Origin: Candidatus Methanoperedens sp.
Lineage (GTDB): Archaea > Halobacteriota > Methanosarcinia > Methanosarcinales > Methanoperedenaceae
Direction of reading: 5' to 3'
NCBI GenBank assembly: GCA_027460535.1
Contig: JAPZAR010000009.1
Span: 47,819-79,818 of the forward strand
Length of the DNA stretch: 32,000 nucleotides
Positions 14,045 to 32,000 of this stretch are shown piece by piece. The number at the start of each line of letters is the position of its first letter. Within the stretch, counting starts at the first letter, position 1. Both the position numbers and the translations under genes were made by a program. The notes below the pieces were generated by a model. That model ran no database searches. It was not told where the DNA came from and was given only the letters and a program-made list of their open reading frames with translations.

Positions 14045-16786
14045 TCATTCTTTTTCTCCTTTTTCATACCCCGAGCCCCGATGGATTATCTCTCTGGCTT
14101 TATCATAAGACTTTCTTGCTTCCTCGTATTCCCCTAATTTATAAAGATCAAAACCTTTGTTATACCAGGCACTGGCATATTCAGGAGTTATCTCTATAGC
14201 TCTATCATAAGCCTTCATTGCCTCTTCGTATTTCCCACTGCTTTGAAGGGATTGGCCTTTGTTATACCAATCATCGGCAGATTCAGGAGTTATCTCTATA
14301 GTTTTTTCATAAACCTTTATCGCCTTTTTGTATTTCCTACTACCATGAAGGGCAAGAACGATGACTATCAAGGCAATTAGAATATATCCCCATGGAGGGA
14401 ATTTTGATCCAATTGTGTTTTTAGGAATTGGTACAGTGATTCTCTCTGCAGATCTAATCTGTATTTGAAGTTCCTGACTTTTCGTGCTGATCTTTCTACC
14501 TTGGGTGTCGAATTCATAGTAATCAGCAGTCGCAGATGGGAGTTTGAAGGGCAGTGTTGAACCTATTTTAACAGCATAGTTTAAACTCACTTTCTCGTTT
14601 GCCTCCAAAGGTCTTTCAAGAGTTGTATTCCCGCTGACCAGGGTCACATTATCTGGCAGCAGGTCATTGATAATCACTTTTGTGGGTGTACTTCCAGTGT
14701 TTTCAGCGATTACTGTTACGATCACAGTATCTCCGGGCCTGACAACAGAAACATCTGTCTGCTTCGTCAGTACAACCTTTGGCCCAAGCACCACAATCTT
14801 TGGCTGGTTTGATCCTATGTTGTATGATCTATTGTTTATATTGAACTCGGCAGTTGCCACCGGGAATACGATGCCCACGTTGTTTGGCTCCAGAGGTCTG
14901 ACATCATAGTGGTATTTCCATTCCCCATTGGCAGGAATATCAACCACCCAGTGCAGCGATTGGTTGCCGAGGAGCTTAAAACCGTCCGGGAGAGAATCCG
15001 TAATACTCACATTTTTAAGATCGTACGTTCCATTGTTTTTTACTGATAATGAAATGCTGGTATAATCCTTCAAATACATCGTGTCAACCGTACTCTTCCT
15101 TATGGAGAGCCCCTCTTGAGGCTCACCAAAGAGTATTGAGTTCAAAAAAATATACGCTTTGCCAAGCATTTCATATAATGTGTTAAGAGGTTCATAGATT
15201 AGCGGTGTTATAGCAGGCACAGGTGTCGCTACTGTGATTTGAGGAGTCGGTGCCGTGGGAATTATCATTACAGTAGCTGCAGGTATTGTGATTTGTGGAG
15301 TAGGTATAGGAGTTTTCTTTGCGGATTTAAGCTGTATTTCAACTTCCTGACTGCTCGTGCTTATCTTTCTACCTATGGATCCGAGTTCATAGTATTCAGC
15401 ATTTGCAGCAGGAAGGGTGATGCTCTCTTTGGAATCGATTCTAAGGATGTAGCTGAAACTAATATTCATTGTTGCTTCCAGAAATCCCCCACTCGATGTG
15501 CTGCCTCTGACCAGGGTCACATCATCTGGCAACGTGTCCATGATATTCAACCTTGTAGGAGTACTTCCTGTATTTTCTGCAACCACAGTTACAGTCACAG
15601 CATCGCCAGGGTTGAACTCTGAAACATCCGCATGCTTCGTGAGGATAATCTTTGGTCCGTATACAACAATCATCGGCTGGTTTGATCGCACGCTATAAAA
15701 TTCATTATTTACTACGAACTCAGCGGTGGCTGCGGGAAAGATGATACCCTCCTTGTTCGACTCAAGAGGTCTTACCAGATAGTGGTAGTCCCATTCCCCA
15801 TTGACAGGAATATCAACAACCCAGTGCAGCGATTGGTTGCCGAGGAGTTTAAAACCGTTTGGAAGAGAATCTGTTATATTTACATTTCTAGCATCGAGCC
15901 TTCCATTGTTTTTTACAGATAATGAAACGATGTTGTAGTCCTTTAAATACATCTTATTAACCGTGGTTTTGCTTACGGAGAGCATAACAGGAACCTCGGC
16001 TGCCATTGAAATGCTCTTTATGGACGTTGCCGTATATGGAATATTCATAACATCGTATCCGCTGACGTTTGCTGATATGCTGTGCATTTCCAGTTCTGGG
16101 AGAATGGGTGATGCAAATGTAATGGTCTCGGTGGCGGATTCCCCTATTTTAATTCTATCATAGTGATATTTTAGATTTCCCCTGTTTATTGGAAGTTCTG
16201 TGTCAATGACCATATCAACATTAACCGCATCAGCCGAGCCTGTATTTTCTAAGTTTACAGTTGCAACAATGTTTGTGGTGTATGAGGATACGTATTTATC
16301 TTTGTCCGTCTGTATCGATACCGCAAGGCTTGGAATACCTCTTGGATCCAATTCAATTACCGCCCACGGAGCATAACTTTCAAAAATCCACTCTTGTGCA
16401 TTTTGAGCAGGGAGTCCGGTTGCTGTAACTCTCAAATTACCATCAGGAACGATATACGATTCCGTCAATCGGAGGGCAGCAGTGCCTATGTAACTGCCAT
16501 TTTTTGAAATATCCAGCTCCACGAAGGGTTCAACATGTTCTTCAGGCCCTGGTCTGTATTTTGCCGATTCCACAGGTGCCGGAAATCCTATCACTTTTAC
16601 TGAATACCCATTATATGTGAGCATTTCGCCACGAATGAGCTTGTTTGACACACCCCCTGTCCACTGCAGTTGTGAACTATCAGATGTTTGGGCAAAGCCG
16701 AACCCTGAGAAAATCAAGGCTATTATGATACCACAAATCAAGCCTTTTTTCCTCTTGTCGAGAGTGGATATATTTTTAAATAACAT
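14045..16786 (-). CDS. Surface protein with DUF11/CARDB-type repeat domains, a C-terminal TM helix and a cytoplasmic TPR tail
   Basis: The ORF track start at 16813 is a GTG. ATG 16786 gives a signal peptide (MLFKNISTLDKRKKGLICGIIIALIFSGFGFAQT). The DUF11-like signature recurs (VKNNGRLDARNVNITDSLPNGF; PGDAVTVTVVAENTGSTPTRLNIMDTLPDDV). A ~219-aa two-domain module is duplicated. The C-terminus has a Pro/Thr linker, a TM helix (WGYILIALIVIVLALHG), RKYKK and near-consensus TPRs. Confidence 0.8.
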   Translation of the reverse strand: MLFKNISTLDKRKKGLICGIIIALIFSGFGFAQTSDSSQLQWTGGVSNKLIRGEMLTYNGYSVKVIGFPAPVESAKYRPGPEEHVEPFVELDISKNGSYIGTAALRLTESYIVPDGNLRVTATGLPAQNAQEWIFESYAPWAVIELDPRGIPSLAVSIQTDKDKYVSSYTTNIVATVNLENTGSADAVNVDMVIDTELPINRGNLKYHYDRIKIGESATETITFASPILPELEMHSISANVSGYDVMNIPYTATSIKSISMAAEVPVMLSVSKTTVNKMYLKDYNIVSLSVKNNGRLDARNVNITDSLPNGFKLLGNQSLHWVVDIPVNGEWDYHYLVRPLESNKEGIIFPAATAEFVVNNEFYSVRSNQPMIVVYGPKIILTKHADVSEFNPGDAVTVTVVAENTGSTPTRLNIMDTLPDDVTLVRGSTSSGGFLEATMNISFSYILRIDSKESITLPAANAEYYELGSIGRKISTSSQEVEIQLKSAKKTPIPTPQITIPAATVMIIPTAPTPQITVATPVPAITPLIYEPLNTLYEMLGKAYIFLNSILFGEPQEGLSIRKSTVDTMYLKDYTSISLSVKNNGTYDLKNVSITDSLPDGFKLLGNQSLHWVVDIPANGEWKYHYDVRPLEPNNVGIVFPVATAEFNINNRSYNIGSNQPKIVVLGPKVVLTKQTDVSVVRPGDTVIVTVIAENTGSTPTKVIINDLLPDNVTLVSGNTTLERPLEANEKVSLNYAVKIGSTLPFKLPSATADYYEFDTQGRKISTKSQELQIQIRSAERITVPIPKNTIGSKFPPWGYILIALIVIVLALHGSRKYKKAIKVYEKTIEITPESADDWYNKGQSLQSSGKYEEAMKAYDRAIEITPEYASAWYNKGFDLYKLGEYEEARKSYDKAREIIHRGSGYEKGEKE
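14078..14395 (-). other. TM helix plus ~95-aa TPR tail module
   Basis: WGYILIALIVIVLALHG-SRKYKK-AIKVYEKTIEITPESADDWYNKGQSLQSSGKYEEAMKAYDRAIEITPEYASAWYNKGFDLYKLGEYEEARKSYDKAREIIHR. The basic residues right after the TM helix imply a cytoplasmic tail. Confidence 0.8.
14453..15985 (-). repeat. Internal duplication: two ~219-aa modules offset by 873 bp
   Basis: aa 277-497 (15323..15985) and aa 569-787 (14453..15109) of the track protein align colinearly. Examples: MYLKDYNIVSLSVKNNG... vs MYLKDYTSISLSVKNNG...; LHWVVDIPVNGEW vs LHWVVDIPANGEW; GRKISTSSQEVEIQLKSA vs GRKISTKSQELQIQIRSA. Confidence 0.85.
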
Positions 16787-16869: not shown

Positions 16870-17106
16870 TTATTTTTCATCTGTAGCCTCTTTGGATGAA
16901 TACATCCATAGCGGCTTCTTTTCACTGCCTACATTGCGTCGCTGGATTTTATCTGTCTCAAGCAGGATTGTTATGAGATTCTCTGCCGTTGATTTGCTGC
17001 AACCAAGGCTATTTATTATTTCACGCAGCGATTTTTCACGAACATATAGCAAGACCAATACTTGCTCGGTTGTGAATTTTTTTTGATACTGGTGTTCTAA
17101 ATGCAT
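16870..17106 (-). CDS. Small winged-helix/HTH DNA-binding protein
   Basis: 78 aa with an HTH-like core (KSLREIINSLGCSKSTAENLITILLETDKIQRRNVG). A GAGGTGA Shine-Dalgarno sits 3 nt before the ATG. The start overlaps the upstream gene by 10 nt. Confidence 0.55.
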   Translation of the reverse strand: MHLEHQYQKKFTTEQVLVLLYVREKSLREIINSLGCSKSTAENLITILLETDKIQRRNVGSEKKPLWMYSSKEATDEK

Positions 17107-17351
17107 CGCGTCACCTCAATCATATTAAGGGCAGCTAAATTAGTTCCATCGGTAATTTCATCGATGGCTTCAACGTAAAGACTTTCACTGATCGTCGCTG
17201 AGGTTTTTTTTGCAATCCGGGTACTCCTGGCGTTCGTTACGTCCCGCCTCCGGATGAGCACGGCAGATGCCACGGCAGCCACCATTGCAATGAATATCAT
17301 GGGCGTGCCTATACCTGCCAGCGCCTCCTCAGTCTTTATTAATGCCTTCAT
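17097..17351 (-). CDS. Archaellin/type IV pilin N-terminal-domain mini-protein (84 aa)
   Basis: MKALIKTEEALAGIGTPMIFIAMVAAVASAVLI matches the archaellin class III signal and hydrophobic core (consensus ...G-IGTLIVFIAMVLVAAVAA-VLI). The downstream ...SESLYVEAIDEITDG... resembles ...ASGLQVIRVLG.... A strong Shine-Dalgarno is present (AGGAGGAGGAaacgtacATG). Full archaellins are about 200 aa or more. Confidence 0.6.
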   Translation of the reverse strand: MKALIKTEEALAGIGTPMIFIAMVAAVASAVLIRRRDVTNARSTRIAKKTSATISESLYVEAIDEITDGTNLAALNMIEVTRCI

Positions 17352-17608
17352 GTACGTTTCCTCCTCCTTTTATAATTATTATGATGAGTATCATAAATTA
17401 ATAGACACAATAGAATTTAAACTTTACGCTTTGAAGCTTTGAGCCTAAAAGGTTTTCTCGCTGATTTTTGTGCAGATAATGGGGATTTTATGGTAGAATT
17501 TGCCTCCAGTTCTTCCACTAATTTCATTCCTGTCAATTTTAAGAGAGTTATATTTATATATTTACAATGCCAATGTCATCATAATACTTATTATAACAAT
17601 GTGGTAAT

Positions 17609-18010
17609 ATGGATAAAGAAATCTGCACCTGTCCAAAATGCGGTAATCAAGATAACATTTGGCATGGTTACAGATACAACAAATCCGGGGAAAAAAGACT
17701 GAGGAAATGCAAAGGCTGCGGTACAAAATTCACTCCAGATGATGGATTCCTGAGACGGCGTTTCCGGAAAGAGCATATCAAGGAGGCGGTCTCCCTTCGC
17801 CAGAGCGGTCTTTCGCTGGGCAAGGTTAAGGAGCATATGCAGCAGCGCCACGGGATTGAGGTTTCGCGATGGATGATTAGTCTGTGGTGCCGGGATTATT
17901 TCAGGAGTATGGATAAATTCACTGAAACAGTTATGCCAGATATAAAAGGAAATGCGCATGCTGGAGACGTAATTGTGATCAAGGATAACAGAAACTTGGA
18001 TGAGATATGA
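17609..18010 (+). CDS. Zn-ribbon + HTH protein resembling the N-terminal DNA-binding part of IS1/IS6-type transposases; no DDE domain
   Basis: CPKCGNQDNIWHGYRYNKSGEKRLRKCKGCGTKFT is a CxxC...CxxC zinc ribbon. It is followed by an HTH-like stretch (EAVSLRQSGLSLGKVKEHMQQRHGIEVSRWMISLWCRDY). The ORF ends at 133 aa near AHAGDVIVIK, roughly where the first catalytic D region (WHxDE) would sit in IS6-type enzymes. Confidence 0.5.
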   Translation: MDKEICTCPKCGNQDNIWHGYRYNKSGEKRLRKCKGCGTKFTPDDGFLRRRFRKEHIKEAVSLRQSGLSLGKVKEHMQQRHGIEVSRWMISLWCRDYFRSMDKFTETVMPDIKGNAHAGDVIVIKDNRNLDEI

Positions 18011-18052: not shown

Positions 18053-19648
18053 ATGAAAGGAAATTATAAAATTGGAATTGCAGTTTTACTGTTGGTTACG
18101 ATAACAGCAGCGTCGGCAGCTACACAGATCGGAGACAATATAACTGTTGCGAATAACGTCACAGCACAGAACTTTATAGGTAATTTAAATTGGGCATATT
18201 TATTAGGAATTCCTACAGATTTTCCGAACTCGACAGCGGTAACAGCAAACAATACAGCGAATGGTGCTGTTCAAACTTCGCTTTATAATGGCGACTTCCC
18301 GAATACCTCTTTGCCGAATTATCTTTTGATTTCAACATACGGTACCGACTTCCCGAACTTGACAGCAGTAACAGCAAACAATACAGCGAATGGTGCTGTT
18401 CAGACTTCGCTTTATAATGGCGACTTCCCGAATACCTCTTTGCCGAATTATCTTTTGATTTCAACATACGGTACCGACTTCCCGAACTCGACAGCAGTAA
18501 CAGCAAACAACACAGCGAATGGTGCTGTTCAGACTTCGCTTTATAATGGCGACTTCCCGAATACTTCCTTGCCGAATTATCTTTTGATTTCAACATACGG
18601 TACCGACTTCCCGAACTCGACAGCAGTAACAGCAAACAACACAGCGAATGGTGCTGTTCAAACTTCGCTTTATAATGGCAACTTCCCGAATACCTCTTTG
18701 CCTAATTATCTTTTGATTTCAACATACGGTACCGACTTCCCGAACTCGACAGCAGTAACAGCAAACAACACAGCGAATGGTGCTGTTCAAACTTCACTTT
18801 ATAATGGCAACTTCCCGAACAGTTCTGTCCTGACAAAAGAACCGGCAATCACAGGCTCAACCTCAAATACTTTTTGGAATGGATTAAAACAATTTGTTAC
18901 TCTATCAAGCGGATTGATTACTGATTTTTCAGCAGCGGTAAGAACAAATATATCAGCAACAGGTAATGCTACTTACAACTCAGCCACCGGAGTGATTGAT
19001 GCTCTTACCAATATAACAGCAGTAAGGACTTCAATATCAGCAACAGGCAATGCTACTTATAATTCATCGACTGGTGTAATTGACGCATTAACTAACATCA
19101 CTGCAGTAAGGAATTCAATATCATCAAGCAGCGGGCTTGTATCTTATAATTCTTCGACAGGAGTAGTATCGGATAGCATCAATTCATCTGCAAATCTGTA
19201 TAATATAAATGGCAGTAATGTAACAAGTGGCAAAGTAAATAGTCAATTCCTTAATATAACCAATATTACGTCGTATTTATCTAGTAATAAAGTTACACCA
19301 AACAACAACGTATACGTTGTCGGGCCTACCATAAATCTTCAAGCCGGCACATGGTTTCTTAATGGAGGAGTTACAGTATCCGAAGTCGGAGGTGCTGGTT
19401 CACTAAAAGTAGTAACGTGTAATATGTCACAAGGTGGCACAAATGTAATATCTTCAGGTGAAGCTGCTAGCAATGCCGTACCAGCGGTAATCCAATTGTC
19501 CGGGCTTATATCCCTTAGTTCACCAGCTACCGCACAGATTGCTTGTGCCGGTGGTGCTCAAAATGCAACTATCTATGCGGCTGTACCTGATAATGCTGGA
19601 GGAGCAGGAAATACTGCAAGCTATATTACAGCGCTAAGGATCGGATAA
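18053..19648 (+). CDS. Secreted repeat protein, tail-fibre/adhesin-like
   Basis: cGGAGGA Shine-Dalgarno 7 nt upstream. Signal peptide MKGNYKIGIAVLLLVTITAASAATQ. The protein has 4.7 x 43-aa repeats and 3 x 28-aa repeats (AVRTxISATGNATYNSxTGVIDALTNIT). The C-terminal ~130 aa is Gly/Ala/Ser-rich, probably a beta domain, and ends ASYITALRIG. Confidence 0.75.
   Translation: MKGNYKIGIAVLLLVTITAASAATQIGDNITVANNVTAQNFIGNLNWAYLLGIPTDFPNSTAVTANNTANGAVQTSLYNGDFPNTSLPNYLLISTYGTDFPNLTAVTANNTANGAVQTSLYNGDFPNTSLPNYLLISTYGTDFPNSTAVTANNTANGAVQTSLYNGDFPNTSLPNYLLISTYGTDFPNSTAVTANNTANGAVQTSLYNGNFPNTSLPNYLLISTYGTDFPNSTAVTANNTANGAVQTSLYNGNFPNSSVLTKEPAITGSTSNTFWNGLKQFVTLSSGLITDFSAAVRTNISATGNATYNSATGVIDALTNITAVRTSISATGNATYNSSTGVIDALTNITAVRNSISSSSGLVSYNSSTGVVSDSINSSANLYNINGSNVTSGKVNSQFLNITNITSYLSSNKVTPNNNVYVVGPTINLQAGTWFLNGGVTVSEVGGAGSLKVVTCNMSQGGTNVISSGEAASNAVPAVIQLSGLISLSSPATAQIACAGGAQNATIYAAVPDNAGGAGNTASYITALRIG
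18221..18825 (+). repeat. In-frame tandem repeat, 129-bp unit x ~4.7
   Basis: Unit starts (ttcccgaact) fall at 18221, 18350, 18479, 18608 and 18737, an exact 129-bp spacing. Only a few substitutions separate the units. The encoded unit is FPNSTAVTANNTANGAVQTSLYNG(D/N)FPNTSLPNYLLISTYGTD. Confidence 0.9.
18935..19186 (+). repeat. In-frame tandem repeat, 84-bp unit x 3
   Basis: Units begin at 18935, 19019 and 19103 (gc[g/a]gtaag[a/g]...). The third copy is more divergent. Confidence 0.85.
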
Positions 19649-19689: not shown

Positions 19690-22600
19690 ATGAGACTGTT
19701 TATTTATTTGATAGGCATTGCATTGATAATCGGAGTAGCTTCGGCTGACGTCAGCATTGTAGACGACACTCTTTTCAACCTCGGCAATGGTGCCTTCATT
19801 AAAGTCCTTGCAGTCCAGAACTCGACAAACATCACCGTATACAGTTCAACAAATTCACCGGCATCCACGCTCCAGTTTTACATCAACGGCACAGCGATAA
19901 GATTCACCGCAAACACCAATAAAACGCTCTCAAATATTTCTTATGATAATGCGACCGATGTCGTAACATACACCGGGAATGGCACTGATGGCTATCTCAA
20001 TGTATCGACGCGAATGCAAGTATCATCGGTAAATTATGGATTGAAGGTTGACGGAGTTGTTGACCAAAGGCAACAATCCAATGCTACCGGGTGGGTGACA
20101 TTCAATTACACAGGATGGAGCCCGAATCTGCATGTCTTTGAAATATCGAATCGAACATATATTCCTCCAGCACCCACGAACCTGATCAATGTCAGCGATA
20201 ACTTTTATGTGAACCACAGCTGGCAGGCAGGATCAGGAAACATAACGGATTCGTACAATGTAAGCGTCAATGGTACCTGGCATAATGGTGCAAACAGTAC
20301 CTATTACAATAATTCAGGTTTAGCTCCACACGGCTGGAGCAACATCTCGGTATATTCATACAACAGTTCAGGTACAGGCACGATGAACACCACGGCTGTA
20401 TCCCAGAACACCCGGGTCCCGGATAATCCAGTAACGATAACTAATATTTCAGATTCATATAATCTCAATGACAGTGAGACTCTTTACATAGCTGCGAATT
20501 GCACTGACATAGACGGCGACACATGCATTTTTAATAGGAATTTCACTCAAGGGACATTCGATTCATCTACGGGAATACTCAACTGGCAGGCAGGATACGG
20601 AAATTATAGCTGGCAGATTAACGTCACTGATGGGTTTGGTTCAGTTTCCAGGAAGAATTTCACAGTTGCGGTAAACGACATCCACCCCCCATCGCAGGTA
20701 ACTAATTTTCATAACTCTACCATCCCAACTGCGGATTCAGTCAATGTTGCATGGAACGCAAGCAATGACGGTGCAAACGGCTCTGGGATTAAGGAATACA
20801 GAATTGAGCGAACCAATGAATCGTTCAATTACATGACCATTGATAGGCCCATAATAAATGCAACTGGAATAGCATCGGGGTACGAGAACGATTCTTACTG
20901 GTATACTTTCAAGACCAATGAACCGGTTAACTGTCAGGGATGCCACGTCAATGGAAGGACGAGAATAGGCAATTTCTGGACCAAATACAATACAACGTAC
21001 CTCTACGTGATGGTGCATGCACCGGATAACGACACAAATATAAGCGATGATAACATAAGTCTTGCATTCGACGTGAACAGGGATAGTGGCACAGCTCCGC
21101 AGCCGGATGACCAGATGTATGAAATTACTGAGCAGAACAACCTTCTCCGCTATACAGGCAACGGCACAGATTGGGTCGCAAACAGTACCAGTGCTGTAAG
21201 TGCCGTAGCGGGTGCAGGTTCAAAAGCGCCAGTATATGAGATAAGAATTCCACTATCTGAAATAGGCAGCCCTTCTAATAACACGCCTATAAATTTCTTA
21301 TTTGAGAACGTATGTACCGGCAGCGGTGATTTTATAGAGAGGCACACATATTTCCCGAAAAACCCAAACGCCAGCGAAAAGGATCCAAGTTCGTGGGGAT
21401 TGATAACATTCAGGAGCCTCACGGATTATGTTCAGATAGCCAATCCATCAGGAACTTCTTATATGATTGCGGATCTAAAGGATGGTTTCAGGTATGACTT
21501 CACAGCTAAGGCCGTGGATAATGTCGGCAATACAGGTCAGCGTTCAGACCCATTGATTATTCAGACTGCGGGAGATCTCGGTTACAATATCTCAGGGTAC
21601 GTTTTTAATTACCTTGGAAATCCAATACCAAATGTTCGTGTCCAGACGCCCAAAGACTATATCGTAAGTTCGCATTCAAATGGCGATTATTTCTTAGAAG
21701 AGCTGATTAATTTTACTTATGATGTTACTGCAAGCAGCGGAGTTTACAGCAGCGATATCACACAAGTTACAGTAAATGGCGCTGATGTTCATAATGTCAA
21801 TATCACAATTCCGCATATTACAGTAAACGCCACAGACTTGGTCACTGCATGCGGGAATTTCTATTGCAACTCAACATGGACTGCTGGAGGTAACACTACA
21901 TCGTTTAATATAAGCCAAAATGAAACCTGGTATAATGGCACTACCAATAATTATTTTAACGTCTCGATCAGCCCGCATGAATACAGCAATATCACAGTGT
22001 CTGGTTACAATGACTATACGACAGCTCTTAGTATTGGAAGTGTAACGCAGAACACTTCAATCCAGAACAATCCTGTTACAATAGGCAACATATCAGATAA
22101 CTATTCATTGATCGAAGGGCAAACCCTCATCATATATCCAAATTCAACCGATGCGGACAGTGACACTCCGACGTTTGCCAGGAATTTCACGAACGGTACG
22201 TTCTACACGAATAACGGCACAATGCTCTGGACGACTACGGGCAGCGATATAGGCATTCATTCCTGGCAGATAAACGTGACTGATGGGTATGGTTCGGTTT
22301 CCTCTGCAAATTTCACGGTAACCGTGAATTCATTCGAAGTGAGCCTGACAAATATATCTGCTTTAACAAATACTACTTTTGCAGGAACAAATGCGATCTA
22401 TATTCTCAATCTGACCAATAACGGTACAGCAGGAGCGGATACGTATAATCTCACGATCGATAATACAAACGGAGCATCCGCTTCCTTGAACGTCTCCCCG
22501 GATTTTGTGTATGTGCCTCAAGCCGGAAGCGTAATATTCGCACTCAATGTAACCAATGCATCGTCAGGAATATTCCGTGTCAATGTCACAGCAACCTCGG

Positions 22601-25600
22601 TGAATAACTCAAATAAGATTGCATACATCAATACCACAACGACTGTGAATGCTGTCAGGGCAGTCAGCCTGAGTGTGGATCCTACTGCAAGGACCACATC
22701 AGCTGGAACCAATGCAACCTACGTACTCAACATCACCAACAACGGCAGCGACCCGGATACCTATACTCTCCTTGTAACCAATGCCAGCAGTGCCTCCGTA
22801 GCATTGCTGAACATCTCCTCCCCAACATCCACGCTCGGTTCAGGTCAGAGCCTGATCCTCGCCCTTAACGTCACCAATACCTCTTCAGGCACATTCCTTG
22901 TGAATGTAACCGCAACCTCAAGCAGCGATGCCACGAAATTCGCCTATGTCAATACCACAACGACTGTGAATGCGGTCAGGGCAGTTAACCTGACCGTAAA
23001 TCCAAGCGAACAGGCAACATCCACAGGCACCAATGCCACCTATCTCCTCAACCTCACCAATAACGGTACTGATGCAGATACCTATACTCTCGTCGTTACT
23101 AACGCAAACAATGCATCAACCGCTTTGTTGAATACCTCATTGAGCCAGAGCCTGAATGCAGGGCAGAGCCTGATATTGGCTCTTAACGTGACCAATTCAT
23201 CAGCAGGTTCAGGTACTTTCAATGTAAATGTAAGTGCCACCTCAAGCGATCCTACTAAGTTCGCGTTCGTCAATACCACAACGACTGTGAATGCGGTCAG
23301 GGCAGCCAACCTGACCGTAAATCCAGGCGAACAGGCAACATCCACAGGCACCAATGCCACCTATATCCTCAACCTCACCAATAACGGTACTGATGCAGAT
23401 ACCTATACTCTCCTTGTAACCAATTCCAGCAGTGCCTCCGTAGCATTGCTGAACATCTCCTCCCCAACATCAACGCTCAGTCCGGGTCAGAGCCTGATCT
23501 TCGCCCTTAACGTCACCAATGCCTCTTTGGGCACATTCCTTGTGAATGTAACCGCAACGTCAAGCAACGATGCCACGAAATTCGGCTATGTCAATACCAC
23601 CACGACTGTGAATGCGGTCAGGGCAGTCAGCCTTACAGTAAATACAGCCGCCCAGACAACATCTGCCGGAACCAATGCCACCTACGTACTCAACCTCACC
23701 AATAACGGTACTGATGCAGATACCTATACTCTCCTTGTAACCAATTCCAGCAGTGCCTCCGTAGCATTGCTGAACATCTCCTCCCCAACATCCATGCTCA
23801 GTCCGGGTCAGAGCCTGATCTTCGCCCTTAACGTGACCAATACCTCTTCGGGCACGTTCAAGGTGAATGTAACCGCAACCTCAAGCAGCGATGCCACGAA
23901 ATTCGCCTATGTCAATACCACAACGACTGTGAATGCTGTCAGGGCTGTTAGTTTAAGCATAGATGCTCCTTCAAAGGACACCGATGCCGGCGTGAATGCC
24001 ACCTACGTGCTCAATCTTACCAATAACGGCAGCGACCCGGATTCCTATGCCTTGCTGGTAACCAACGCGAGCAATGCCTCTGTAGCGGCTCTCAATATCT
24101 CCTCGCCCACTTCTACGCTCAGTCCGGGTCAGAGCCTGATCTTCGCCCTTAACGTGACCAATACCTCTTCGGGTACGTTCAAGGTGAATGTAACCGCAAT
24201 CTCGCAGGGCAACAATTCGAAGTTCGCCAGCGTGAATACCACAACTGTGATGGGTGCTATCCGGGGTGTCAGTTTAAGCATAGACGCTCCTTCAAAGAGC
24301 ACCGACGCCGGCGTGAATGCCACCTACGTGCTCAATCTTACCAATAACGGTACTGATGCGGATACCTATACTCTCCTTGTAACCAATTCCAGCAGTGCTT
24401 CCGTAGCATTGCTGAACATCTCCTCCCCAACATCCACGCTCGGTTCAGGTCAGAGCCTGATCTTCGCCCTTAACGTCACCAATACTTCTTCGGGTAACTT
24501 CAGCGTCAATGTAACCGCAACCTCAAGCATCAATGCCACAAAATTCGCCTATGTCAATACCACAACGGCTGTGAATGCGGTCAGGGCAGTCAGCCTGACC
24601 ATCAATACAACTGCCCAGACAACATCAGCCGGAACCAATGCCACCTATATCCTCAACCTCACCAATAACGGTACTGATGCAGATACCTATACTCTCATCG
24701 TTACTAACGCAAACAGTGCCTCAACCGCTCTTCTGAATACCTCATTGAGCCAGAGCCTGAATGCAGGACAGAGTGTTATATTCGCCCTTAACGTCACCAA
24801 TACCTCCTCAGGCACATTCCTCGTGAATGTAACCGCAACCTCAGGCAACGATGCCACAAAATTCGCCTATGTCAATACCACCACGATTGTGAATGCAGTC
24901 CCGACTTACATACCTCCGACCCCGACAGATTTATCGAGCACTCAGGGTAATTTCTGGATAAACTACACATGGAGTGCAGGGAGCGGGAGCGTAACGGATT
25001 CATACAATGTAAGCGTCAACGGCACATGGCATAACGGAACAAACAGTACCTATTACAATAATTCAGGTTTAGCTCCACATGGCTGGAGCAACATCTCGGT
25101 CTATTCCTTCAACAATTCAGGCACGGGCACGCTGAACAGCACTGCCGTATCCCAGAACACCCGGGTGCCGAACAACGTACCTGTCCAGGCATCGATCGGC
25201 AACAAGAACGTGTACGAGAACGAGACATTGAGCTTCACGGTCTCTGCAACAGACGCAGACGGCGATACCATGACCTTCGGCACCAATGCATCAAAAGGCA
25301 GCCTCAATACAACAACAGGCTTATTCACCTGGACGCCCACGTTCGGGGACTCAGGGATTTACGTCTGGTACTTCAATTCAAGCGACGGGTACGAAGGTAT
25401 AGCGACTGAAACCATAACAGTGACCGTGAACAATATCCCATTAACAATCACCTCGCGTTCACCCGGCACCGACCCGACCACAATCGTAGATACAGGTCAG
25501 ACCTTCACTGTAAACCTGAACAGGAGTGCAAACGTCACCTGGTACATCAACGGCATATCTGTCCAGGGAAACACCAGCATAACCTCGGCAAGCTATACCA

Positions 25601-28600
25601 ACCTAACTTCCGGTGTGGGTGTGCATAACCTAACAGCAATGGTATCCGATGCTTTCGATACCACTCCAACCATGTGGAACTGGACTGTAACTGCATTCCC
25701 GACCCACATGCCCCCGACCCCTTCCAATCTTACCAGCAGCACAGGATATTACTTCGTGAACCACAGCTGGCAGGCAGGAGACGGGAACGTAACGGACAGC
25801 TATAACGTCAGCGTAAACGGCACATGGCAAAACGACACGACCGGTACCTATTACAACAATTCAGGGTTGTCTGCACACGGTTGGAGCAACATCTCGGTCT
25901 ATTCCTTCAACACTTCAGGCACAGGAGCCCTTAACGAAACCCCGGTAACCGCAAATACCCAGGTTCCCAACAACGTTCCTGTCCTCACACCAATCGTAGA
26001 TAAAGTCGTGACTGCAGGCATCTGGCTGAATTTCACAGTCGTTGCGACGGATGCAGACGGCGATCCTTTAACCTACGGCACCAATGCCACCAGGGGAGCA
26101 CTCGATCCTGCATCAGGTAACTTTAACTGGTCAACCACAGGCAGCGATGTGGGAACCTATGTGTGGTACTTCAGCTCAAGTGATACCTACGGCGGTGTTG
26201 CATCAGGAACAATAACAGTGACCGTGACTGCTGCTCCCACGTATCTCCCGCCAAGCCCGGTGAACCTTGCCAGCACCACAGGGAATTTCTATGTCAACCA
26301 TACCTGGAATGCAGGCTCAGGAAACGTAACCCACAGCTATAAAGTGAGTGTGAATGGTACATTTCAAAATATTGGGTTGAACTGGAGTGCTGGTATCCCA
26401 GTGGGAGTTGGTATTCTTGCATTGACTTATGCTGGAAACGGAACTGTTATCGCTGGTGATTACTCTAATGGTAATATTTATCGTTCAACAGACTATGGTC
26501 AAACCTGGGGTGCTGGTATTTCAGTTGGAAGTAGTATTGGTGGACTAACCTATACTGGCAACGGGGTTATTATCGCTGCTGATAGCAATAACGGTAATAT
26601 TTATCGTTCGACAGACTATGGTCAAACCTGGAGTGCTGGTATTCCAGTCGGGAGTGCTATTTTTGAATTGACGTATGCTGAAAACGGAACAGTTATCGCT
26701 GCTGATAGCAATAACGGTAATATTTATCGTTCAACCGACTATGGTCAAACCTGGAGTGCTGGTATTCCAGTTGGGAGTGTTTATTATGCATCGACTTATG
26801 CCGGAAACGGAACTGTTATCGCTGGTGATTATGCCAATGGTAATATTTATCGTTCCACAGACTATGGTCAAACCTGGAGTGCTGGTATTCCAGTCGGGAG
26901 TAGTATTGGTGTAATAACCTACGCTGGAAACGGAATTGTATTCGCTGCTGATAGCAATAACGGTAATATCTATCGTTCAACCGATTATGGTCAAACCTGG
27001 AGTGCTGGTATTCCAGTCGGGAGTGTTATTTTTGCATTGACTTATGCAGGCAACGGAATTGTTATCGCTGGTGAGGACAGTGACGGTGATATTTATCGTT
27101 CAACCGACTATGGTCAAACCTGGAGTGCTGATATTCTAGTCGGGAGTGGTATTGATGGGATAATCTATATTGGAAATGGAATTGTTATCGCTGGTGATTA
27201 CAAAAACGGTAATATTTATCGTTCGGATCCTACCTATACTACGCATACCTATTACAACAATTCAGGGTTGTCTGCACACGGATGGAGCAACATCTCGGTC
27301 TATTCCTTCAACAATTCAGGCACAGGAACCCTTAACGAAACCCCGGTAACCGCAAACACCCAGGTTCCCAACAATCCGGTCTCGATAGGGAATGTATCGA
27401 GCAGCTACACATTAACCGCGGGTGACATGTTATCGATATATCCGACTTCGAGCGATCTGGACGGCGACACTCCCACGTTTGCCAGTAATTTCACCAACGG
27501 TACGTTCTACGCGAATAACGGCACACTGTTCTGGACGACAACGGGCAGCGATGAAGGCATCCATTCCTGGCAGATAAACGTGACAGACGGGTACGGGTCG
27601 GTCTCCTTTGCAAATTTCACGGTAACCGTGACCGCAGTACTTGCACCCAACATCACTTCCTGGGGCAATAACAAGACCAACAATGAGAGCTTGACTTTAA
27701 CCCTGAACAATAGCGAAGGCATAAGGTTCAATGCCACTGCAAACCAGAGTATAACCACATGGACATGGTTCCAGGACGACGTTAACCAGAACAATAACTA
27801 TGACAATTTCTCAACCAGCCTCACTGGCGGAAATCATACCATTAAAGTCAATGCAACCAATGGTAACGGGGTAAGCAATACTATTACCTGGATTGTTACG
27901 ATAACTCCAACGCCAACCATCTCACCGGTAATCACAGGCTTTGCTCCTTCTTCGCCCGTAATTGATATCGTGGGTGCAACTAGAACCTTCAACATCACCG
28001 TTAACCAGACCGTGAACGTAACCTGGTATGTCAACGGAACGCAGGCTCAGACAAATACGAGTGTGACTAATGCAGGTTATACCAACGCCAGTGCAGGACT
28101 TGGCGTATGGAACGTAACAGCCACTGCAGCCAATTCCAATGGTGTCGTATCACAGGTATGGATATGGAATGTGACAGCAGCACCGAGTGGAGCACCTAAC
28201 ATAACCAGTTTTGCTCCTTCTTCGCCCGTAAATGATATCGTGGGTGTAACTAGAATATTCAACATCACCGTTAACCAGACCGTGAACGTAACCTGGTACA
28301 TCAACGGAACGCAGGCTCAGACCAATATCAGTGTGACCGATGCCAGTTATACCAACACCAGTGCAGTCCTTGGAGTATGGAACATATCAGCAAATGCAGC
28401 CAATTCCAATGGCGTTGTTTCACAGGCGTGGATCTGGAACGTGACAGCAGCCCCGACAGGAACACCTAATATAACCAGTTTTGCCCCGGCTTCGCCTGTA
28501 AACGATATCGTGGGTGCAACTAGAACATTCAACATCATCGTTAACCAGATCGTGAATATAACATGGTACATCAACGGAACTCAGGTTCAGACAAGTATGA

Positions 28601-29715
28601 GTGTGACCGGTGCCAGTTATACTAACACCAGTGCAGTCCTTGGAGTATGGAACATAACAGCCACTGCAACCAATTCCAATGGTGTTGTATCACAGGTATG
28701 GATGTGGAACGTGGCAGCAGCACCAACCCCGGCACCCACTCGGAAATCTGTTACCGGCGGCGGTGGGGGTGGCGGAGGTGGAGAAGGCGCAAAATCCTCG
28801 GAACCGCCCATAAACATTGAGTCGTTTGAGCTTGCGGAACAATACTTAGGAGCAAATACTCCTGCCTCTTATATATTCACTACACCAAACCTTGTAATTT
28901 CTGAAGTGTTAATAACTCCTGCAAGGAACTTTGGAACTACAAGCATAAGAATAGAAACGCTCAAAAATTTATCAAACAGAGAAGGGATGACACCACCCCC
29001 AGGAATTGTTTATAAATATGTTAATATCTGGGTCGGTGCAGGGGATATCGATAGTCCAGACAGCATCATAGACGCATTCATAGGGTTTGAAGTCGATCGC
29101 GGCTGGCTTGCGCAGAATAACCTTGAGGAGAATAATATAAGACTTCTTAGATGGGACGGAAGCAAGTGGAACTCGCTGGATACTCAGCCAACGAGCAGTG
29201 ATGAAACATTCGCATATTATTATTCAAGAACCAACGCATTCTCGCCTTTTGCAATAGTTGCCCTTCCCCTTTATCCATCTGCCACAGCTCAGGCAGGCGA
29301 AACTCCAATAACAGAGGCTCCAATGCAAGAGCTAATAAAACAGTTGGCGGTAGAACGGGTATCCTGGCTGTGGATGTATGCATTAATTGCTTTGATACTT
29401 ATCAGCCTTGCCCTTTATAAATTAAGTAAATACCAAAAAAAGGCAATTAAAGTTTATGAAGCTGTGGCGATAAAGCCAGAGAATGCCGATGCATGGTATG
29501 GTAAAGGCGCCGAGCTTCAGGAGATAGGGAAATACGAAGAGGCAATAAAATCTTATGATAAGGCTATAGAGATAAATCCAGAATATTCCAATGCTTGGAA
29601 TAACAAAGGTTTTGCCCTCTATGAATTAGGGAAATACGAAGAGGCAGCAAAGGCATATGATAAAGCAAGAGAGATAATCCATCGAAGCAGGCAATCGGAT
29701 GAGGACTCTTTATGA
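19690..29715 (+). CDS. Giant (3341-aa) modular surface glycoprotein with a PGF-pre-PGF domain, TM helix and cytoplasmic TPR tail
   Basis: The ORF track start at 19672 is a TTG. ATG 19690 gives the signal peptide MRLFIYLIGIALIIGVASA/DV. Modules, read by eye, in order: five FN3-like plus cadherin-like/He_PIG pairs (acidic DxDxDGD motifs); an FN3 with a CBM9-like insert; a CarboxypepD_reg-like domain; eight 107-aa CARDB/NEW3-like repeats; a seven-unit Asp-box propeller; five NVTWYING-type Ig-like modules; a G9 linker; a PGF-pre-PGF domain; TM; TPRs. Confidence 0.9.
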   Translation: MRLFIYLIGIALIIGVASADVSIVDDTLFNLGNGAFIKVLAVQNSTNITVYSSTNSPASTLQFYINGTAIRFTANTNKTLSNISYDNATDVVTYTGNGTDGYLNVSTRMQVSSVNYGLKVDGVVDQRQQSNATGWVTFNYTGWSPNLHVFEISNRTYIPPAPTNLINVSDNFYVNHSWQAGSGNITDSYNVSVNGTWHNGANSTYYNNSGLAPHGWSNISVYSYNSSGTGTMNTTAVSQNTRVPDNPVTITNISDSYNLNDSETLYIAANCTDIDGDTCIFNRNFTQGTFDSSTGILNWQAGYGNYSWQINVTDGFGSVSRKNFTVAVNDIHPPSQVTNFHNSTIPTADSVNVAWNASNDGANGSGIKEYRIERTNESFNYMTIDRPIINATGIASGYENDSYWYTFKTNEPVNCQGCHVNGRTRIGNFWTKYNTTYLYVMVHAPDNDTNISDDNISLAFDVNRDSGTAPQPDDQMYEITEQNNLLRYTGNGTDWVANSTSAVSAVAGAGSKAPVYEIRIPLSEIGSPSNNTPINFLFENVCTGSGDFIERHTYFPKNPNASEKDPSSWGLITFRSLTDYVQIANPSGTSYMIADLKDGFRYDFTAKAVDNVGNTGQRSDPLIIQTAGDLGYNISGYVFNYLGNPIPNVRVQTPKDYIVSSHSNGDYFLEELINFTYDVTASSGVYSSDITQVTVNGADVHNVNITIPHITVNATDLVTACGNFYCNSTWTAGGNTTSFNISQNETWYNGTTNNYFNVSISPHEYSNITVSGYNDYTTALSIGSVTQNTSIQNNPVTIGNISDNYSLIEGQTLIIYPNSTDADSDTPTFARNFTNGTFYTNNGTMLWTTTGSDIGIHSWQINVTDGYGSVSSANFTVTVNSFEVSLTNISALTNTTFAGTNAIYILNLTNNGTAGADTYNLTIDNTNGASASLNVSPDFVYVPQAGSVIFALNVTNASSGIFRVNVTATSVNNSNKIAYINTTTTVNAVRAVSLSVDPTARTTSAGTNATYVLNITNNGSDPDTYTLLVTNASSASVALLNISSPTSTLGSGQSLILALNVTNTSSGTFLVNVTATSSSDATKFAYVNTTTTVNAVRAVNLTVNPSEQATSTGTNATYLLNLTNNGTDADTYTLVVTNANNASTALLNTSLSQSLNAGQSLILALNVTNSSAGSGTFNVNVSATSSDPTKFAFVNTTTTVNAVRAANLTVNPGEQATSTGTNATYILNLTNNGTDADTYTLLVTNSSSASVALLNISSPTSTLSPGQSLIFALNVTNASLGTFLVNVTATSSNDATKFGYVNTTTTVNAVRAVSLTVNTAAQTTSAGTNATYVLNLTNNGTDADTYTLLVTNSSSASVALLNISSPTSMLSPGQSLIFALNVTNTSSGTFKVNVTATSSSDATKFAYVNTTTTVNAVRAVSLSIDAPSKDTDAGVNATYVLNLTNNGSDPDSYALLVTNASNASVAALNISSPTSTLSPGQSLIFALNVTNTSSGTFKVNVTAISQGNNSKFASVNTTTVMGAIRGVSLSIDAPSKSTDAGVNATYVLNLTNNGTDADTYTLLVTNSSSASVALLNISSPTSTLGSGQSLIFALNVTNTSSGNFSVNVTATSSINATKFAYVNTTTAVNAVRAVSLTINTTAQTTSAGTNATYILNLTNNGTDADTYTLIVTNANSASTALLNTSLSQSLNAGQSVIFALNVTNTSSGTFLVNVTATSGNDATKFAYVNTTTIVNAVPTYIPPTPTDLSSTQGNFWINYTWSAGSGSVTDSYNVSVNGTWHNGTNSTYYNNSGLAPHGWSNISVYSFNNSGTGTLNSTAVSQNTRVPNNVPVQASIGNKNVYENETLSFTVSATDADGDTMTFGTNASKGSLNTTTGLFTWTPTFGDSGIYVWYFNSSDGYEGIATETITVTVNNIPLTITSRSPGTDPTTIVDTGQTFTVNLNRSANVTWYINGISVQGNTSITSASYTNLTSGVGVHNLTAMVSDAFDTTPTMWNWTVTAFPTHMPPTPSNLTSSTGYYFVNHSWQAGDGNVTDSYNVSVNGTWQNDTTGTYYNNSGLSAHGWSNISVYSFNTSGTGALNETPVTANTQVPNNVPVLTPIVDKVVTAGIWLNFTVVATDADGDPLTYGTNATRGALDPASGNFNWSTTGSDVGTYVWYFSSSDTYGGVASGTITVTVTAAPTYLPPSPVNLASTTGNFYVNHTWNAGSGNVTHSYKVSVNGTFQNIGLNWSAGIPVGVGILALTYAGNGTVIAGDYSNGNIYRSTDYGQTWGAGISVGSSIGGLTYTGNGVIIAADSNNGNIYRSTDYGQTWSAGIPVGSAIFELTYAENGTVIAADSNNGNIYRSTDYGQTWSAGIPVGSVYYASTYAGNGTVIAGDYANGNIYRSTDYGQTWSAGIPVGSSIGVITYAGNGIVFAADSNNGNIYRSTDYGQTWSAGIPVGSVIFALTYAGNGIVIAGEDSDGDIYRSTDYGQTWSADILVGSGIDGIIYIGNGIVIAGDYKNGNIYRSDPTYTTHTYYNNSGLSAHGWSNISVYSFNNSGTGTLNETPVTANTQVPNNPVSIGNVSSSYTLTAGDMLSIYPTSSDLDGDTPTFASNFTNGTFYANNGTLFWTTTGSDEGIHSWQINVTDGYGSVSFANFTVTVTAVLAPNITSWGNNKTNNESLTLTLNNSEGIRFNATANQSITTWTWFQDDVNQNNNYDNFSTSLTGGNHTIKVNATNGNGVSNTITWIVTITPTPTISPVITGFAPSSPVIDIVGATRTFNITVNQTVNVTWYVNGTQAQTNTSVTNAGYTNASAGLGVWNVTATAANSNGVVSQVWIWNVTAAPSGAPNITSFAPSSPVNDIVGVTRIFNITVNQTVNVTWYINGTQAQTNISVTDASYTNTSAVLGVWNISANAANSNGVVSQAWIWNVTAAPTGTPNITSFAPASPVNDIVGATRTFNIIVNQIVNITWYINGTQVQTSMSVTGASYTNTSAVLGVWNITATATNSNGVVSQVWMWNVAAAPTPAPTRKSVTGGGGGGGGGEGAKSSEPPINIESFELAEQYLGANTPASYIFTTPNLVISEVLITPARNFGTTSIRIETLKNLSNREGMTPPPGIVYKYVNIWVGAGDIDSPDSIIDAFIGFEVDRGWLAQNNLEENNIRLLRWDGSKWNSLDTQPTSSDETFAYYYSRTNAFSPFAIVALPLYPSATAQAGETPITEAPMQELIKQLAVERVSWLWMYALIALILISLALYKLSKYQKKAIKVYEAVAIKPENADAWYGKGAELQEIGKYEEAIKSYDKAIEINPEYSNAWNNKGFALYELGKYEEAAKAYDKAREIIHRSRQSDEDSL
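20932..20946 (+). other. CXXCH motif (CQGCH), candidate covalent haem c site
   Basis: tgt cag gga tgc cac is in frame. It uses two of the seven Cys I counted by eye in the 3341-aa protein. It lies ~25 aa before the CBM9/DOMON-like core (TYLYVMVHAPDND). The motif is certain; the function is speculative. Confidence 0.35.
22342..24900 (+). repeat. In-frame tandem array, 8 x ~321 bp (107-108 aa CARDB/NEW3-like domain)
   Basis: Unit starts fall at 22342, 22666, 22987, 23308, 23629, 23950, 24271 and 24592. The conserved core is GTNATY(V/I/L)LNLTNNGTDADTYTL...ALNVTNTSSGTF.VNVTATS...KFAYVNTTTTVNAVRAV. Confidence 0.95.
26380..27230 (+). repeat. In-frame tandem array, 7 x 123 bp (41-aa Asp-box/BNR blades)
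   Basis: ggt(aat/gat)at(t/c)tatcgttc recurs at 26470, 26593, 26716, 26839, 26962, 27085 and 27208, an exact 123-bp period. The unit is SAGIPVGS.I..LTYAGNG.VIA.D..NGNIYRSTDYGQTW, and STDYGQTW fits S-x-D-x-G-x-T-W. Confidence 0.95.
27925..28734 (+). repeat. In-frame tandem array, 3 x 270 bp (90-aa Ig-like module)
   Basis: Units start at 27925, 28195 and 28465. The unit is P(N/V)IT.FAP.SPV.DIVGATRTFNITVNQTVNVTWYINGTQAQTN.SVT.A.YTNTSA.LGVWN.TA.A.NSNGVVSQVW.WNVTAAP. More divergent copies lie at ~25435 and ~27640. Confidence 0.9.
28798..29265 (+). other. PGF-pre-PGF domain (TIGR04213-like) of the giant protein
   Basis: SEPPINIESFE...VYKYVNIWVGAG...IGFEVDRGWLAQNNLEENNIRLLRWDGSKWNSLDT...AFSPFAIVA is colinear with 10501..10950 in the PGF-CTERM protein. 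Both domains are preceded by a poly-Gly linker. Confidence 0.75.
29365..29690 (+). other. TM helix plus TPR tail module
   Basis: WLWMYALIALILISLALY-KLSKYQKK-AIKVYEAVAIKPENADAWYGKGAELQEIGKYEEAIKSYDKAIEINPEYSNAWNNKGFALYELGKYEEAAKAYDKAREIIHR. By my hand alignment it is ~70% identical to the tail of the 14045..16786 protein. Confidence 0.8.
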
Positions 29716-29884
29716 ATGGTCTTTAATTTATTCTGTTCTTAACAATGCTTTGCAGCATAAGAGTAAAGATGCCACCTATGTCTCCCTGGATGTACTGAGG
29801 CTGATACGTGAGGCAGAAGACAAGGTGAAACGGCTTGCTCCAGGTGAATATAGAAAAATTCTTATAGATGCTGTAAATCCTTGA
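29699..29884 (+). CDS. Hypothetical small protein (61 aa), paralogue of the next ORF
   Basis: The ATG overlaps the giant gene's end by 17 nt. It shares the ALxHKS...LxxDxLRxIxExDxKxK pattern with 29907..30164. No family recognised. Confidence 0.3.
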   Translation: MRTLYEWSLIYSVLNNALQHKSKDATYVSLDVLRLIREAEDKVKRLAPGEYRKILIDAVNP

Positions 29885-29906: not shown

Positions 29907-30164
29907 GTGGGAAATTATAAGAACTTACGGAAAGCATTGCTGCATAAAAGCGATACTGTTGCGCATTTGGCCATAGACCTTCTCAGGAAAATCAAAGAGG
30001 AAGATCAGAAAATTAAGGAAATAGAGCAACTCACGCAAAAGGGAACGAATCTCCAGATACAAAATGTGAGTTTTTTATGCACAATATTGAAAAAAATCAA
30101 AGAAGATCGACATCCAATTTTAATGAGCATTAAAAAGATAGAAAAGTATAATAGCATGACATGA
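29907..30164 (+). CDS. Hypothetical small protein (85 aa), paralogue of the previous ORF
   Basis: GTG start. KALLHKSDTVAHLAIDLLRKIKEEDQKIKEI aligns with NALQHKSKDATYVSLDVLRLIREAEDKVKRL. Confidence 0.3.
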   Translation: MGNYKNLRKALLHKSDTVAHLAIDLLRKIKEEDQKIKEIEQLTQKGTNLQIQNVSFLCTILKKIKEDRHPILMSIKKIEKYNSMT

Positions 30165-30498
30165 CATAACATTCAATGACCTGTACATAGGATAAATCGT
30201 AATGATGTCATGGCTGGGATAAGGTAAGTCAAATTGATTCTTTGATAGGAGAGTCTATCGACTTTCAGTAATTAATCCACCACATATTGTTGCGATTATA
30301 AAAGATAGTAGGATGGGAGGAATATAAAAATGAACTTAAAAATGGTAATGGTATTGTTGACTCTGGCTTTTATCCAGGGAGCGTCAGCACAACATACCCA
30401 AAACGCTGCGTGCGAATCTGCAGGTTGTCATAAGTACCCATCGGTATTTCTAAAAAATACCGTAAGTATACAGGGTATGTAACAATCAGGAGGTTATC

Positions 30499-32000: not shown

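Follow-up and report, generated by a model that had tools for sequence, protein, structure and literature searches.

A divergent, regulator-led surface-protein cluster in Candidatus Methanoperedens with a probable role in attachment or in a glycoprotein coat

Which role do two large, divergently transcribed surface-protein genes play in an archaeon with both planktonic and aggregated cells, and do the small genes between them belong to the same system? Methanoperedens oxidises methane with nitrate, metals or electrodes and alternates between planktonic and aggregated growth; to our knowledge, its envelope and attachment machinery are essentially uncharacterised. The question arises from a stretch of 32,000 nt of Candidatus Methanoperedens sp. 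(GCA_027460535.1, JAPZAR010000009.1, positions 47,819-79,818 of the forward strand), hereafter the window. An initial annotation had described a surface-adhesin island in it. The positions, strands and divergent orientation of the two large genes A and F were as claimed, and the 2.9-kb core between them was found with its four open reading frames (ORFs) wHTH, arcN, ZnHTH and E. A third secreted protein, G, was also found, with a signal peptide and incomplete at the window edge (Table 1).

The favoured explanation, with a probability of roughly 0.55, is a lineage-specific Candidatus Methanoperedens cell-surface cluster of two divergent regulator-led units with a probable role in attachment or in a glycoprotein coat. 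The first unit would lead from wHTH, a small winged helix-turn-helix protein, to A, a stalk-like CLIPPER/DUF11 protein with one transmembrane (TM) helix and a short cytoplasmic TPR tail. The second would lead from ZnHTH, a zinc-ribbon/helix-turn-helix (HTH) protein, through E, where present, to F. This giant would be a heavily N-glycosylated chain of Ig-like, cadherin-like and propeller domains with a PGF-pre-PGF end and a TM+TPR tail. wHTH and ZnHTH are most likely transcription regulators of their own units, and the cluster is probably co-regulated. ZnHTH would have been fixed together with the left end of its former element, comprising a transposase-binding inverted repeat and a promoter. 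It likely binds this site and autoregulates an operon that now holds the surface-protein gene. A and F probably have a part in cell-cell or cell-surface attachment, or in the building of a glycoprotein coat.

Table 1. Features of the window; positions count from the first nucleotide of the window
Feature	Position	Strand	Remarks
Glycosylation cluster	1-9050		
635-aa surface protein	9232-11139	+	PGF-pre-PGF (TIGR04213, E 7.5e-34), PGF-CTERM end KAPGFEMVTSLAALTVLITVFLRDRKRR
A	14045-16786	-	913 aa, signal peptide, one TM helix
A, TPR tail	14048-14338		two TPR units and a half unit
A, TM helix	14339-14404		aa 795-816, hydropathy scan
Inverted repeat, 226 nt	14079-14304 (left arm), 29459-29684 (right arm)		78% complementary; arms encode the TPR tails of A and F
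wHTH	16870-17106	-	78 aa; 10-nt overlap with arcN
arcN	17097-17351	-	84 aa
wHTH operon promoter-region motif	17417-17430	-	GCGTAAAG(T/C)TTAA, also GTAAAG(C/T)TTAA; 5' of arcN in the window
IS6 left-end remnant	17531-17570	+	TGTCAATTTTAAGAGAG (motif 17531-17547), then TATA-like TTATATTTATATA
ZnHTH	17609-18010	+	133 aa
E	18053-19648	+	531 aa, secreted
E, tandem array	18224-18819		4.6 copies of a 129-bp (43-aa) repeat, 97%
F	19690-29715	+	3341 aa, signal peptide and TM helix
F, part 1			signal peptide, N-terminal domain, five FN3-like X modules, each with a following cadherin-like/Big_9 Y module
F, part 2	22628-24900	+	eight to nine 107-aa Ig-like repeats
F, part 3	26382-27224	+	7-blade BNR propeller inside X5
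F, part 4	27940-28724 (array)	+	four ~90-aa Ig-like repeats, then Gly9 linker
F, part 5	28804-29262	+	PGF-pre-PGF domain
F, part 6	29356-29427	+	TM helix (aa 3223-3246)
F, part 7	29428-29712	+	two TPR units
Short ORFs after F	29699-29884, 29907-30164	+	61 aa and 85 aa; tblastn 71-80% over 40-49 aa
50-aa ORF	30331-30483	+	signal peptide, single CESAGCH motif
G	from 30499 (to 32000, window end)	+	signal peptide; gene incomplete in the window

Gene order was compared with related contigs or loci (labelled L) and related proteins (labelled P). All named relatives of the window sequences are labelled Candidatus Methanoperedens. The divergent unit, with wHTH leading to A on one side and ZnHTH leading to F on the other, recurs in L057/L058, L061 and L063, in the latter at 85-89% identity. 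Across loci, the four-gene arrangement is found at 60-89% protein identity. The ZnHTH-F half is seen in L060 and L062. In L046, wHTH and A are accompanied by divergent E-like and mini-F genes, and in L044 by a convergent F-like gene. A second clade of ZnHTH is located directly 5' of A relatives, between Sec61beta and LplA (L009-L015, L045, L047); in the called genes of L009/L010, L011-L013 and L014, it overlaps the A relative by 4 nt or leaves a gap of 5 nt. The initial annotation had named missing co-occurrence in related genomes as its refutation. A, wHTH, ZnHTH and F do co-occur; arcN and E do not.

The suspicion that the Zn-ribbon/HTH protein looks transposase-derived can be put more firmly. 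ZnHTH combines a Zn-ribbon (CPKCG...CKGCG) with an HTH, and its residues 48-110 align to positions 2-64 of NF033587. Its family comprises 31 proteins, mostly of 107-145 aa. Proteins of 314-318 aa, which match the IS6 model along its entire length with 121-125 bits, share 61-80% identity with ZnHTH in their N-termini. Among these full-length relatives, those of L016 and L017 reach 124.7 bits for the IS6 transposase model and match DDE_Tnp_IS240 with an E value of 2e-16. ZnHTH itself had no DDE_Tnp_IS240 match in the profile search. Its frame stops at residue 133 in a decayed start of the DDE domain (HAGDVIVIK vs HADEVIVKTKGKKNWYWGAKD in full-length copies). ZnHTH is, by these alignments, demonstrably an IS6-family transposase reduced to its N-terminal, predicted DNA-binding part, without the DDE domain.

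The upstream DNA was kept as well. About 60-80 nt 5' of every ZnHTH copy, TGT(C/A)AATTT(T/A)(A/G)AG(A/G)G is followed by a TATA-like box. In full-length copies, this motif forms the left one of the terminal inverted repeats, GATATTGTCAATTTAAAG, and its mirror image TTAGACAATATC is located past the stop codon; the element ends are also written GATATTGTC... (left) and ...GACAATATC (right). The motif occurs once in the window, with 0.12 chance matches expected, and no IS6 right end is left in the window. The left-end remnant is the putative promoter of ZnHTH and presumably also its binding site. In a neighbour-joining (NJ) tree, ZnHTH proteins form three groups: a mobile clade, a clade 5' of F-type genes, to which the window copy belongs, and a clade 5' of A-type genes at Sec61beta/LplA. 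The ratio of nonsynonymous to synonymous substitution rates (dN/dS) is 0.10-0.29 at dS 0.2-2.4. Since DDE domain, right end and mobility are missing and the gene has a fixed orthologous position under purifying selection, ZnHTH is a domesticated gene and not part of an active insertion sequence (IS). The element end, the clades and the dN/dS values together suggest that a DNA-binding domain, its own site and a promoter were fixed as one regulatory cassette.

Truncated transposase N-termini are known to regulate their own element, as InsA does for IS1. ZnHTH shares with IS6 elements the Zn-ribbon/HTH part, still behind the left inverted repeat and a promoter; it differs in what was lost and in its fixation 5' of surface-protein genes. 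An apparently intact IS6-family element of ~1 kb is located in L017 (9935-10957), bounded by terminal inverted repeats (GATATTGTC) and flanked by a direct repeat, TAATGACC(G); it is the mobile counterpart of the ZnHTH cassette. The motif derived from the left end is doubled, 90 bp apart, 5' of ZnHTH at the Sec61beta/LplA locus (L009 9889/9979, L011 4254/4344, L045 754/844).

On the other strand, wHTH is placed directly 5' of A in the same orientation. Homologues with 72-89% identity occupy the same position in L044, L046, L057, L061 and L063, and dN/dS is 0.24-0.26. The profile matches were to Lrs14/Sta1, weak with an E value of 1e-4 and below cut-off. Lrs14/Sta1 proteins are archaeal wHTH regulators that control biofilm formation and motility in Sulfolobales. 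wHTH resembles them as a small single-domain HTH protein at the head of a surface-protein operon, with Lrs14/Sta1 as best, though weak, profile match; it differs in phylum and in score (22 vs 90 bits). wHTH is probably a dedicated transcription regulator. The motif upstream of its operon is kept in L044, L046 and L057, aligned with the arcN upstream region, and in L063.

Between this conserved promoter motif and wHTH, the window carries arcN. The gene had been annotated as pilin-like, a description that did not survive the comparison. arcN consists of a class-III signal peptide, a hydrophobic N-terminal helix and ~40 more residues. It matches NF006325 (E 1.7e-7) and stays below the cut-off of Pfam Arch_flagellin PF01917 (20.2 bits, cut-off 29.5). 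With 84 aa, compared to 182-207 aa of archaellins, it aligns only along its residues 1-80, the N-terminal ~40% of an archaellin; a C-terminal remnant was looked for and is not present. A word-based search found no relatives and an exhaustive HMMER search only eight. Among the loci, arcN is confined to the window population and L063 and absent from L044, L046, L057 and L061. The L063 copy has a 6-nt indel and a 1-nt deletion that shifts the frame. Its dN of 0.171 is about three times that of the neighbours (0.050-0.072). Compared to Methanoperedens archaellins (FlaB, PF01917), arcN has the same class-III signal peptide and hydrophobic N-terminal helix, but has 84 of ~200 residues, lacks the globular domain, evolves fast and is broken in one relative. 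It is probably a decaying gene fragment, and its insertion behind the wHTH promoter is confined to this sub-lineage.

A consists of a signal peptide, a conserved N-terminal domain, a duplicated pair of Ig-like/CLIPPER(DUF11) modules, a Pro/Thr linker, the TM helix and TPR units, and is predicted to be a type-I membrane surface protein. Four stretches match Pfam DUF11 (PF01345; 93.7 bits, cut-off 24.6); TIGR01451 is matched with 82 bits (cut-off 24). The tail matches TPR_1/2/11 of Pfam. Relatives with 61-86% identity are encoded in L009, L011, L014, L044, L045, L046, L057 and L063. Their ectodomains have many invariant columns, and the number of TPR units is two, one or none. Sequons are not enriched in A in comparison to shuffled sequences. 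The window A sits behind wHTH yet groups with the ZnHTH-led Sec61beta-locus clade, a hint at gene replacement or recombination. Half-size A paralogues of ~480 aa, with one copy of the duplicated module and 43-51% identity, are present in L048-L054; in three of these seven loci (L048, L049, L052), a second copy is convergent on the opposite strand.

For F, the domain map was obtained from self-comparison and profile matches. The cadherin-like modules and the propeller of the initial annotation were both recovered. Big_9-type matches cover four stretches (E 5.5e-7), and residues 2232-2512 comprise seven 41-aa units, each with YRSTDYGQTW, matched as seven BNR/Asp-box blades (BNR_6 45.5 bits, cut-off 27). 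These modules could bind ligands. The 321-bp array was found by TRF with seven copies at 77%. Of the claimed DUF11/CARDB domains, DUF11 was confirmed in A; the 107-aa repeats of F remain below every Pfam DUF11/CARDB threshold. The sole carbohydrate-binding match was a spurious CBM26 hit of 22 residues (E 6e-4, below cut-off); a PGF-pre-PGF domain was found instead, with residues 3039-3191 matching TIGR04213 (130 bits, cut-off 28, E 7e-38). F has 223 N-x-S/T sequons compared to 92.6±7.6 in shuffles, ~17 standard deviations above. F-like relatives are encoded in L007, L008, L044, L046, L057, L060 and L061, and other species have F-like proteins of the same module order. The N-terminal half is strongly divergent between related loci.

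PGF-pre-PGF/PGF-CTERM surface proteins of archaea were reportedly described by Haft et al. in 2012 and are said to be sorted by archaeosortase A (TIGR04213). F resembles the canonical members, including the 635-aa protein of the window, in the full-length PGF-pre-PGF domain behind a Gly-rich linker. The tripartite PGF-CTERM end (PGF motif, TM helix, short basic tail) is present in P0058, P0060 and the 635-aa protein. F has a TM helix and then ~95 residues of TPR. The related proteins P0001, P0002, P0003 and P0006 likewise have no terminal PGF motif, TM helix and basic tail; in its place, 60-100 residues of TPR come after a TM helix. The homologue search with the tail was swamped by generic TPR proteins; the informative ones were P0001-P0006, P0058 and P0060. 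The anchor of F is a predicted variant in which the PGF-CTERM sorting signal is replaced by a TM+TPR tail. F probably remains a type-I membrane protein for this reason, and is not cleaved and lipid-anchored. An AlphaFold2 model of the F tail, based on 12 sequences (pLDDT 80.5), has a beta-sandwich, a TM helix and four TPR helices. A fold search with this model was dominated by TPR matches and yielded nothing on the PGF-pre-PGF sandwich.

TPR tails had been proposed for two of the large proteins and were found in A and F by profiles and, for F, by the tail model. The TM+TPR tails of A and F share 73 of 106 residues (69%) in the window; the values are 55/93 in L044 and 41/76 in L057. The two tails are reciprocal best matches within each of these genomes, and within each genome A has as many TPR units as F. 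Gene conversion between the two inverted arms may keep the tails alike; alternatively, selection may do so if both tails have a common partner in the cytoplasm. A functional inversion switch between the two arms was considered and rejected, because inversion between 3' tails would only exchange the tails and leave expression unchanged. The F-like protein of L057 (5741-11452) has a cytoplasmic tail of one TPR unit and ~190 aa of coiled coil. A separate 168-aa gene 3' of the L007 F-like gene encodes a homologue of this coiled coil, which indicates a gene fusion. Sequence searches against the PDB matched full proteins only to TPR structures; the ectodomains alone matched nothing. No family or solved structure was matched by the N-terminal domains of A, F and G.

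The modules were said to be shared among the three surface proteins. This is the case for the ectodomains of F and G; A has only the TM+TPR tail in common with F and nothing with the visible part of G. That part has an N-terminal domain of its own and, of the repeat types known from F, two of 107 aa and one of ~90 aa; it has 26 sequons (12.8±3.0 expected). E has no membrane anchor. TRF detected a 2.1-copy 84-bp repeat in addition to the 129-bp array, and 31 sequons compare to 17.4±3.5 expected. No relative of E was matched among families, PDB, PHROG or viral sequences (IMG/VR), and a single-sequence AlphaFold2 model had a pLDDT of 43.5. E is absent in L057 and L061, and has only aa 1-89 in common with the E-like gene of L046 (63%). 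By its distribution, E appears as a hypervariable accessory gene outside the conserved core. A viral origin of E or wHTH was considered and dismissed; neither has IMG/VR relatives, E has no PHROG match and wHTH two weak ones.

The two short ORFs after F are homologous to repeat units of larger cytoplasmic proteins encoded 3' of F-like genes in L007 (167, 214 and 471 aa) and L044 (167 and 230 aa). The 471-aa protein of L007 has an Arch_fla_DE domain (E 1.1e-21). The short ORFs are probably shortened or decayed versions of these larger proteins. A further ORF of 50 aa, 15 nt 5' of G, has a CX4CH, haem-binding-like motif and could be a cytochrome gene remnant or a small haem protein.

A glycosylation cluster is located 5' of the island, with one GT1, three GT2, an epimerase and two B12-binding radical-SAM enzymes, the latter with best partial matches to HpnJ and BchE-like proteins. 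The 635-aa surface protein is encoded between this cluster and the island, and DUF116, MfnA and DUF5658 genes are also located upstream of the island. In the window, DUF5658 and MfnA occupy the place of a lipoprotein-histidine kinase-response regulator operon that adjoins the 3' end of A in L044 (7698-9941), L046 (7312-9530) and L057 (255-2583). The first 4 kb of the window have 32-37% GC, compared to 41-51% elsewhere, which may indicate foreign origin. PADLOC had no meaningful defence-system matches on the window, and a defence-system reading of the island was rejected on this ground. No Rfam family and no tRNA were detected in the window. A scan for bacterial-type promoters and terminators was uninformative for archaeal DNA.

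The domain vocabulary of adhesion, noted at the outset, has a documented counterpart: fibrillar adhesins, archaeal ones included, are known to use DUF11/CLIPPER as a stalk domain (PMC12617251). Like CLIPPER adhesins (PMC12617251), the proteins of the island carry a signal peptide and a C-terminal anchor, with a long modular ectodomain that includes tandem Ig-like stalk domains of the CnaA type. They differ in the anchor, a TM helix with cytoplasmic TPR and not a sortase or archaeosortase signal, and in the lack of a recognised tip domain. The isopeptide triad Lys-Asp-Asn is also not clearly conserved in A. Inspection of module 3 by eye shows a Lys (LTK) at a distance of 33 residues from an Asp (IMDTLP), the spacing of 9IFR (PMC12617251); at the position of the candidate Asn (PAANAEY), L009, L011 and the fourth module of A have Thr.

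Several observations weigh against the regulator-led attachment or coat cluster. Profile and PDB searches of A, F and G recognised no adhesive tip domain. The tail seems dispensable in some A relatives, as both the TM helix and the TPR units are missing from those of L011 and L046. The family membership of wHTH is weak (Lrs14 NF040939, 22.2 bits vs cut-off 90), and other ZnHTH paralogues are found in unrelated contexts (L018, L020, L021, L023, L059). The NJ tree of A, calculated without support values, puts the window protein with the Sec61beta-locus clade and misfits a simple vertical history. The flanks differ by genome; the lipoprotein-kinase-regulator operon beside A in L044, L046 and L057 is absent from the window. 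The related loci all belong to one genus, so the conserved synteny could partly reflect shared descent and not function.

Giant ORFs with long arrays raise the concern of chimeras from collapsed or expanded repeats in short-read assemblies, and the initial annotation had named this as a way to fail. The arrays are indeed long and similar, and their copy number differs among assemblies. E has 531, 488 or 402 aa depending on the 129-bp array, and F 3341 or 3234 aa depending on the 321-bp array. Differences between assemblies are confined to these two arrays, in which all unit lengths are multiples of three, and may reflect true population variation or a collapse of short reads. JAPZAT010000041.1 (GCA_027460495.1) and one ENA contig match the window with 99.9% identity. 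Gene order and open frames were matched in a 78-kb contig of an NCBI metagenome-assembled genome, a 78.6-kb ENA contig and several shorter contigs (99.4-100%). Because independent assemblies have the identical layout, the window is not an assembly chimera. Together with F-like proteins of the same module order in other species, this makes an artefact extremely improbable. The architecture is firm; repeat copy numbers are uncertain or genuinely variable. The same length differences between near-identical populations would fit a variable protective coat, in which glycosylated envelope decorations evade viruses or grazers through varying repeat numbers and shuffled modules, and attachment is not the main role. 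The extreme sequon density, the adjoining glycosylation cluster of atypical GC, the strong divergence of E and of the N-terminal half of F between related loci, and the missing tip domain also point in this direction. However, the A ectodomain is strongly conserved (61-86%), unlike a diversifying target, and the copy numbers could stem from short-read collapse. This explanation is possible, but rather unlikely; protective and attachment roles are also not mutually exclusive.

The island may also be a patchwork of unrelated, decaying genes in a recombination-prone surface-protein region, with ZnHTH as a mere relic. Decay is visible in arcN, a fragment under relaxed constraint, in the shortened ORFs after F and in the loss of the DDE domain; decayed copies of the ZnHTH-type IS occur in unrelated contexts, and the flanks vary between genomes. 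Such a patchwork is doubtful, as the frames of ZnHTH and wHTH are intact and under purifying selection at dS values up to ~2, in several species two ZnHTH clades each occupy a fixed place directly 5' of A-type or F-type genes, and the four genes are found again in this arrangement with protein identities of 60-89%. A former archaellum or pilus locus, in which the archaellin fragment and FlaD/E genes mark a motility operon and the surface proteins arrived later, is very unlikely. It would explain the archaellin origin of arcN, the Arch_fla_DE protein after the L007 F-like gene and the related fragments after F in the window. Yet neither the window nor any related locus has flaF/G/H/I/J; most relatives lack arcN, which was clearly inserted after the wHTH promoter was already in place, and FlaD/E-related genes travel with F-like genes and not with archaellins.

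The outside-in scaffolding suggested by the initial annotation would act through TPR tails that are labile in evolution. Beyond the attachment or coat role of the two regulator-led units, the matching tails allow a more speculative extension, which we regard as improbable. The tails of A and F would be the inner end of a surface-to-cytoplasm device that docks to a shared partner, with engagement of the ectodomains feeding back on expression or on the switch between motile and aggregated cells. Candidate partners may be the coiled-coil and FlaD/E-related proteins encoded after F-like genes, or wHTH and ZnHTH themselves. ZnHTH and its inverted-repeat operator may then be a transposon-born regulatory cassette that was recruited twice for the control of surface proteins.

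Three aspects of the cluster are new. The PGF-pre-PGF architecture occurs with the archaeosortase signal apparently swapped for a TM helix and a cytoplasmic TPR tail. With ZnHTH, the DNA-binding domain of a transposase is fixed together with its own putative site and promoter before host genes, a clear example from prokaryotes. The match of two cytoplasmic tails within a genome points to a shared, identifiable intracellular partner. For Methanoperedens, the cluster offers a conserved, testable pair of candidate attachment proteins.

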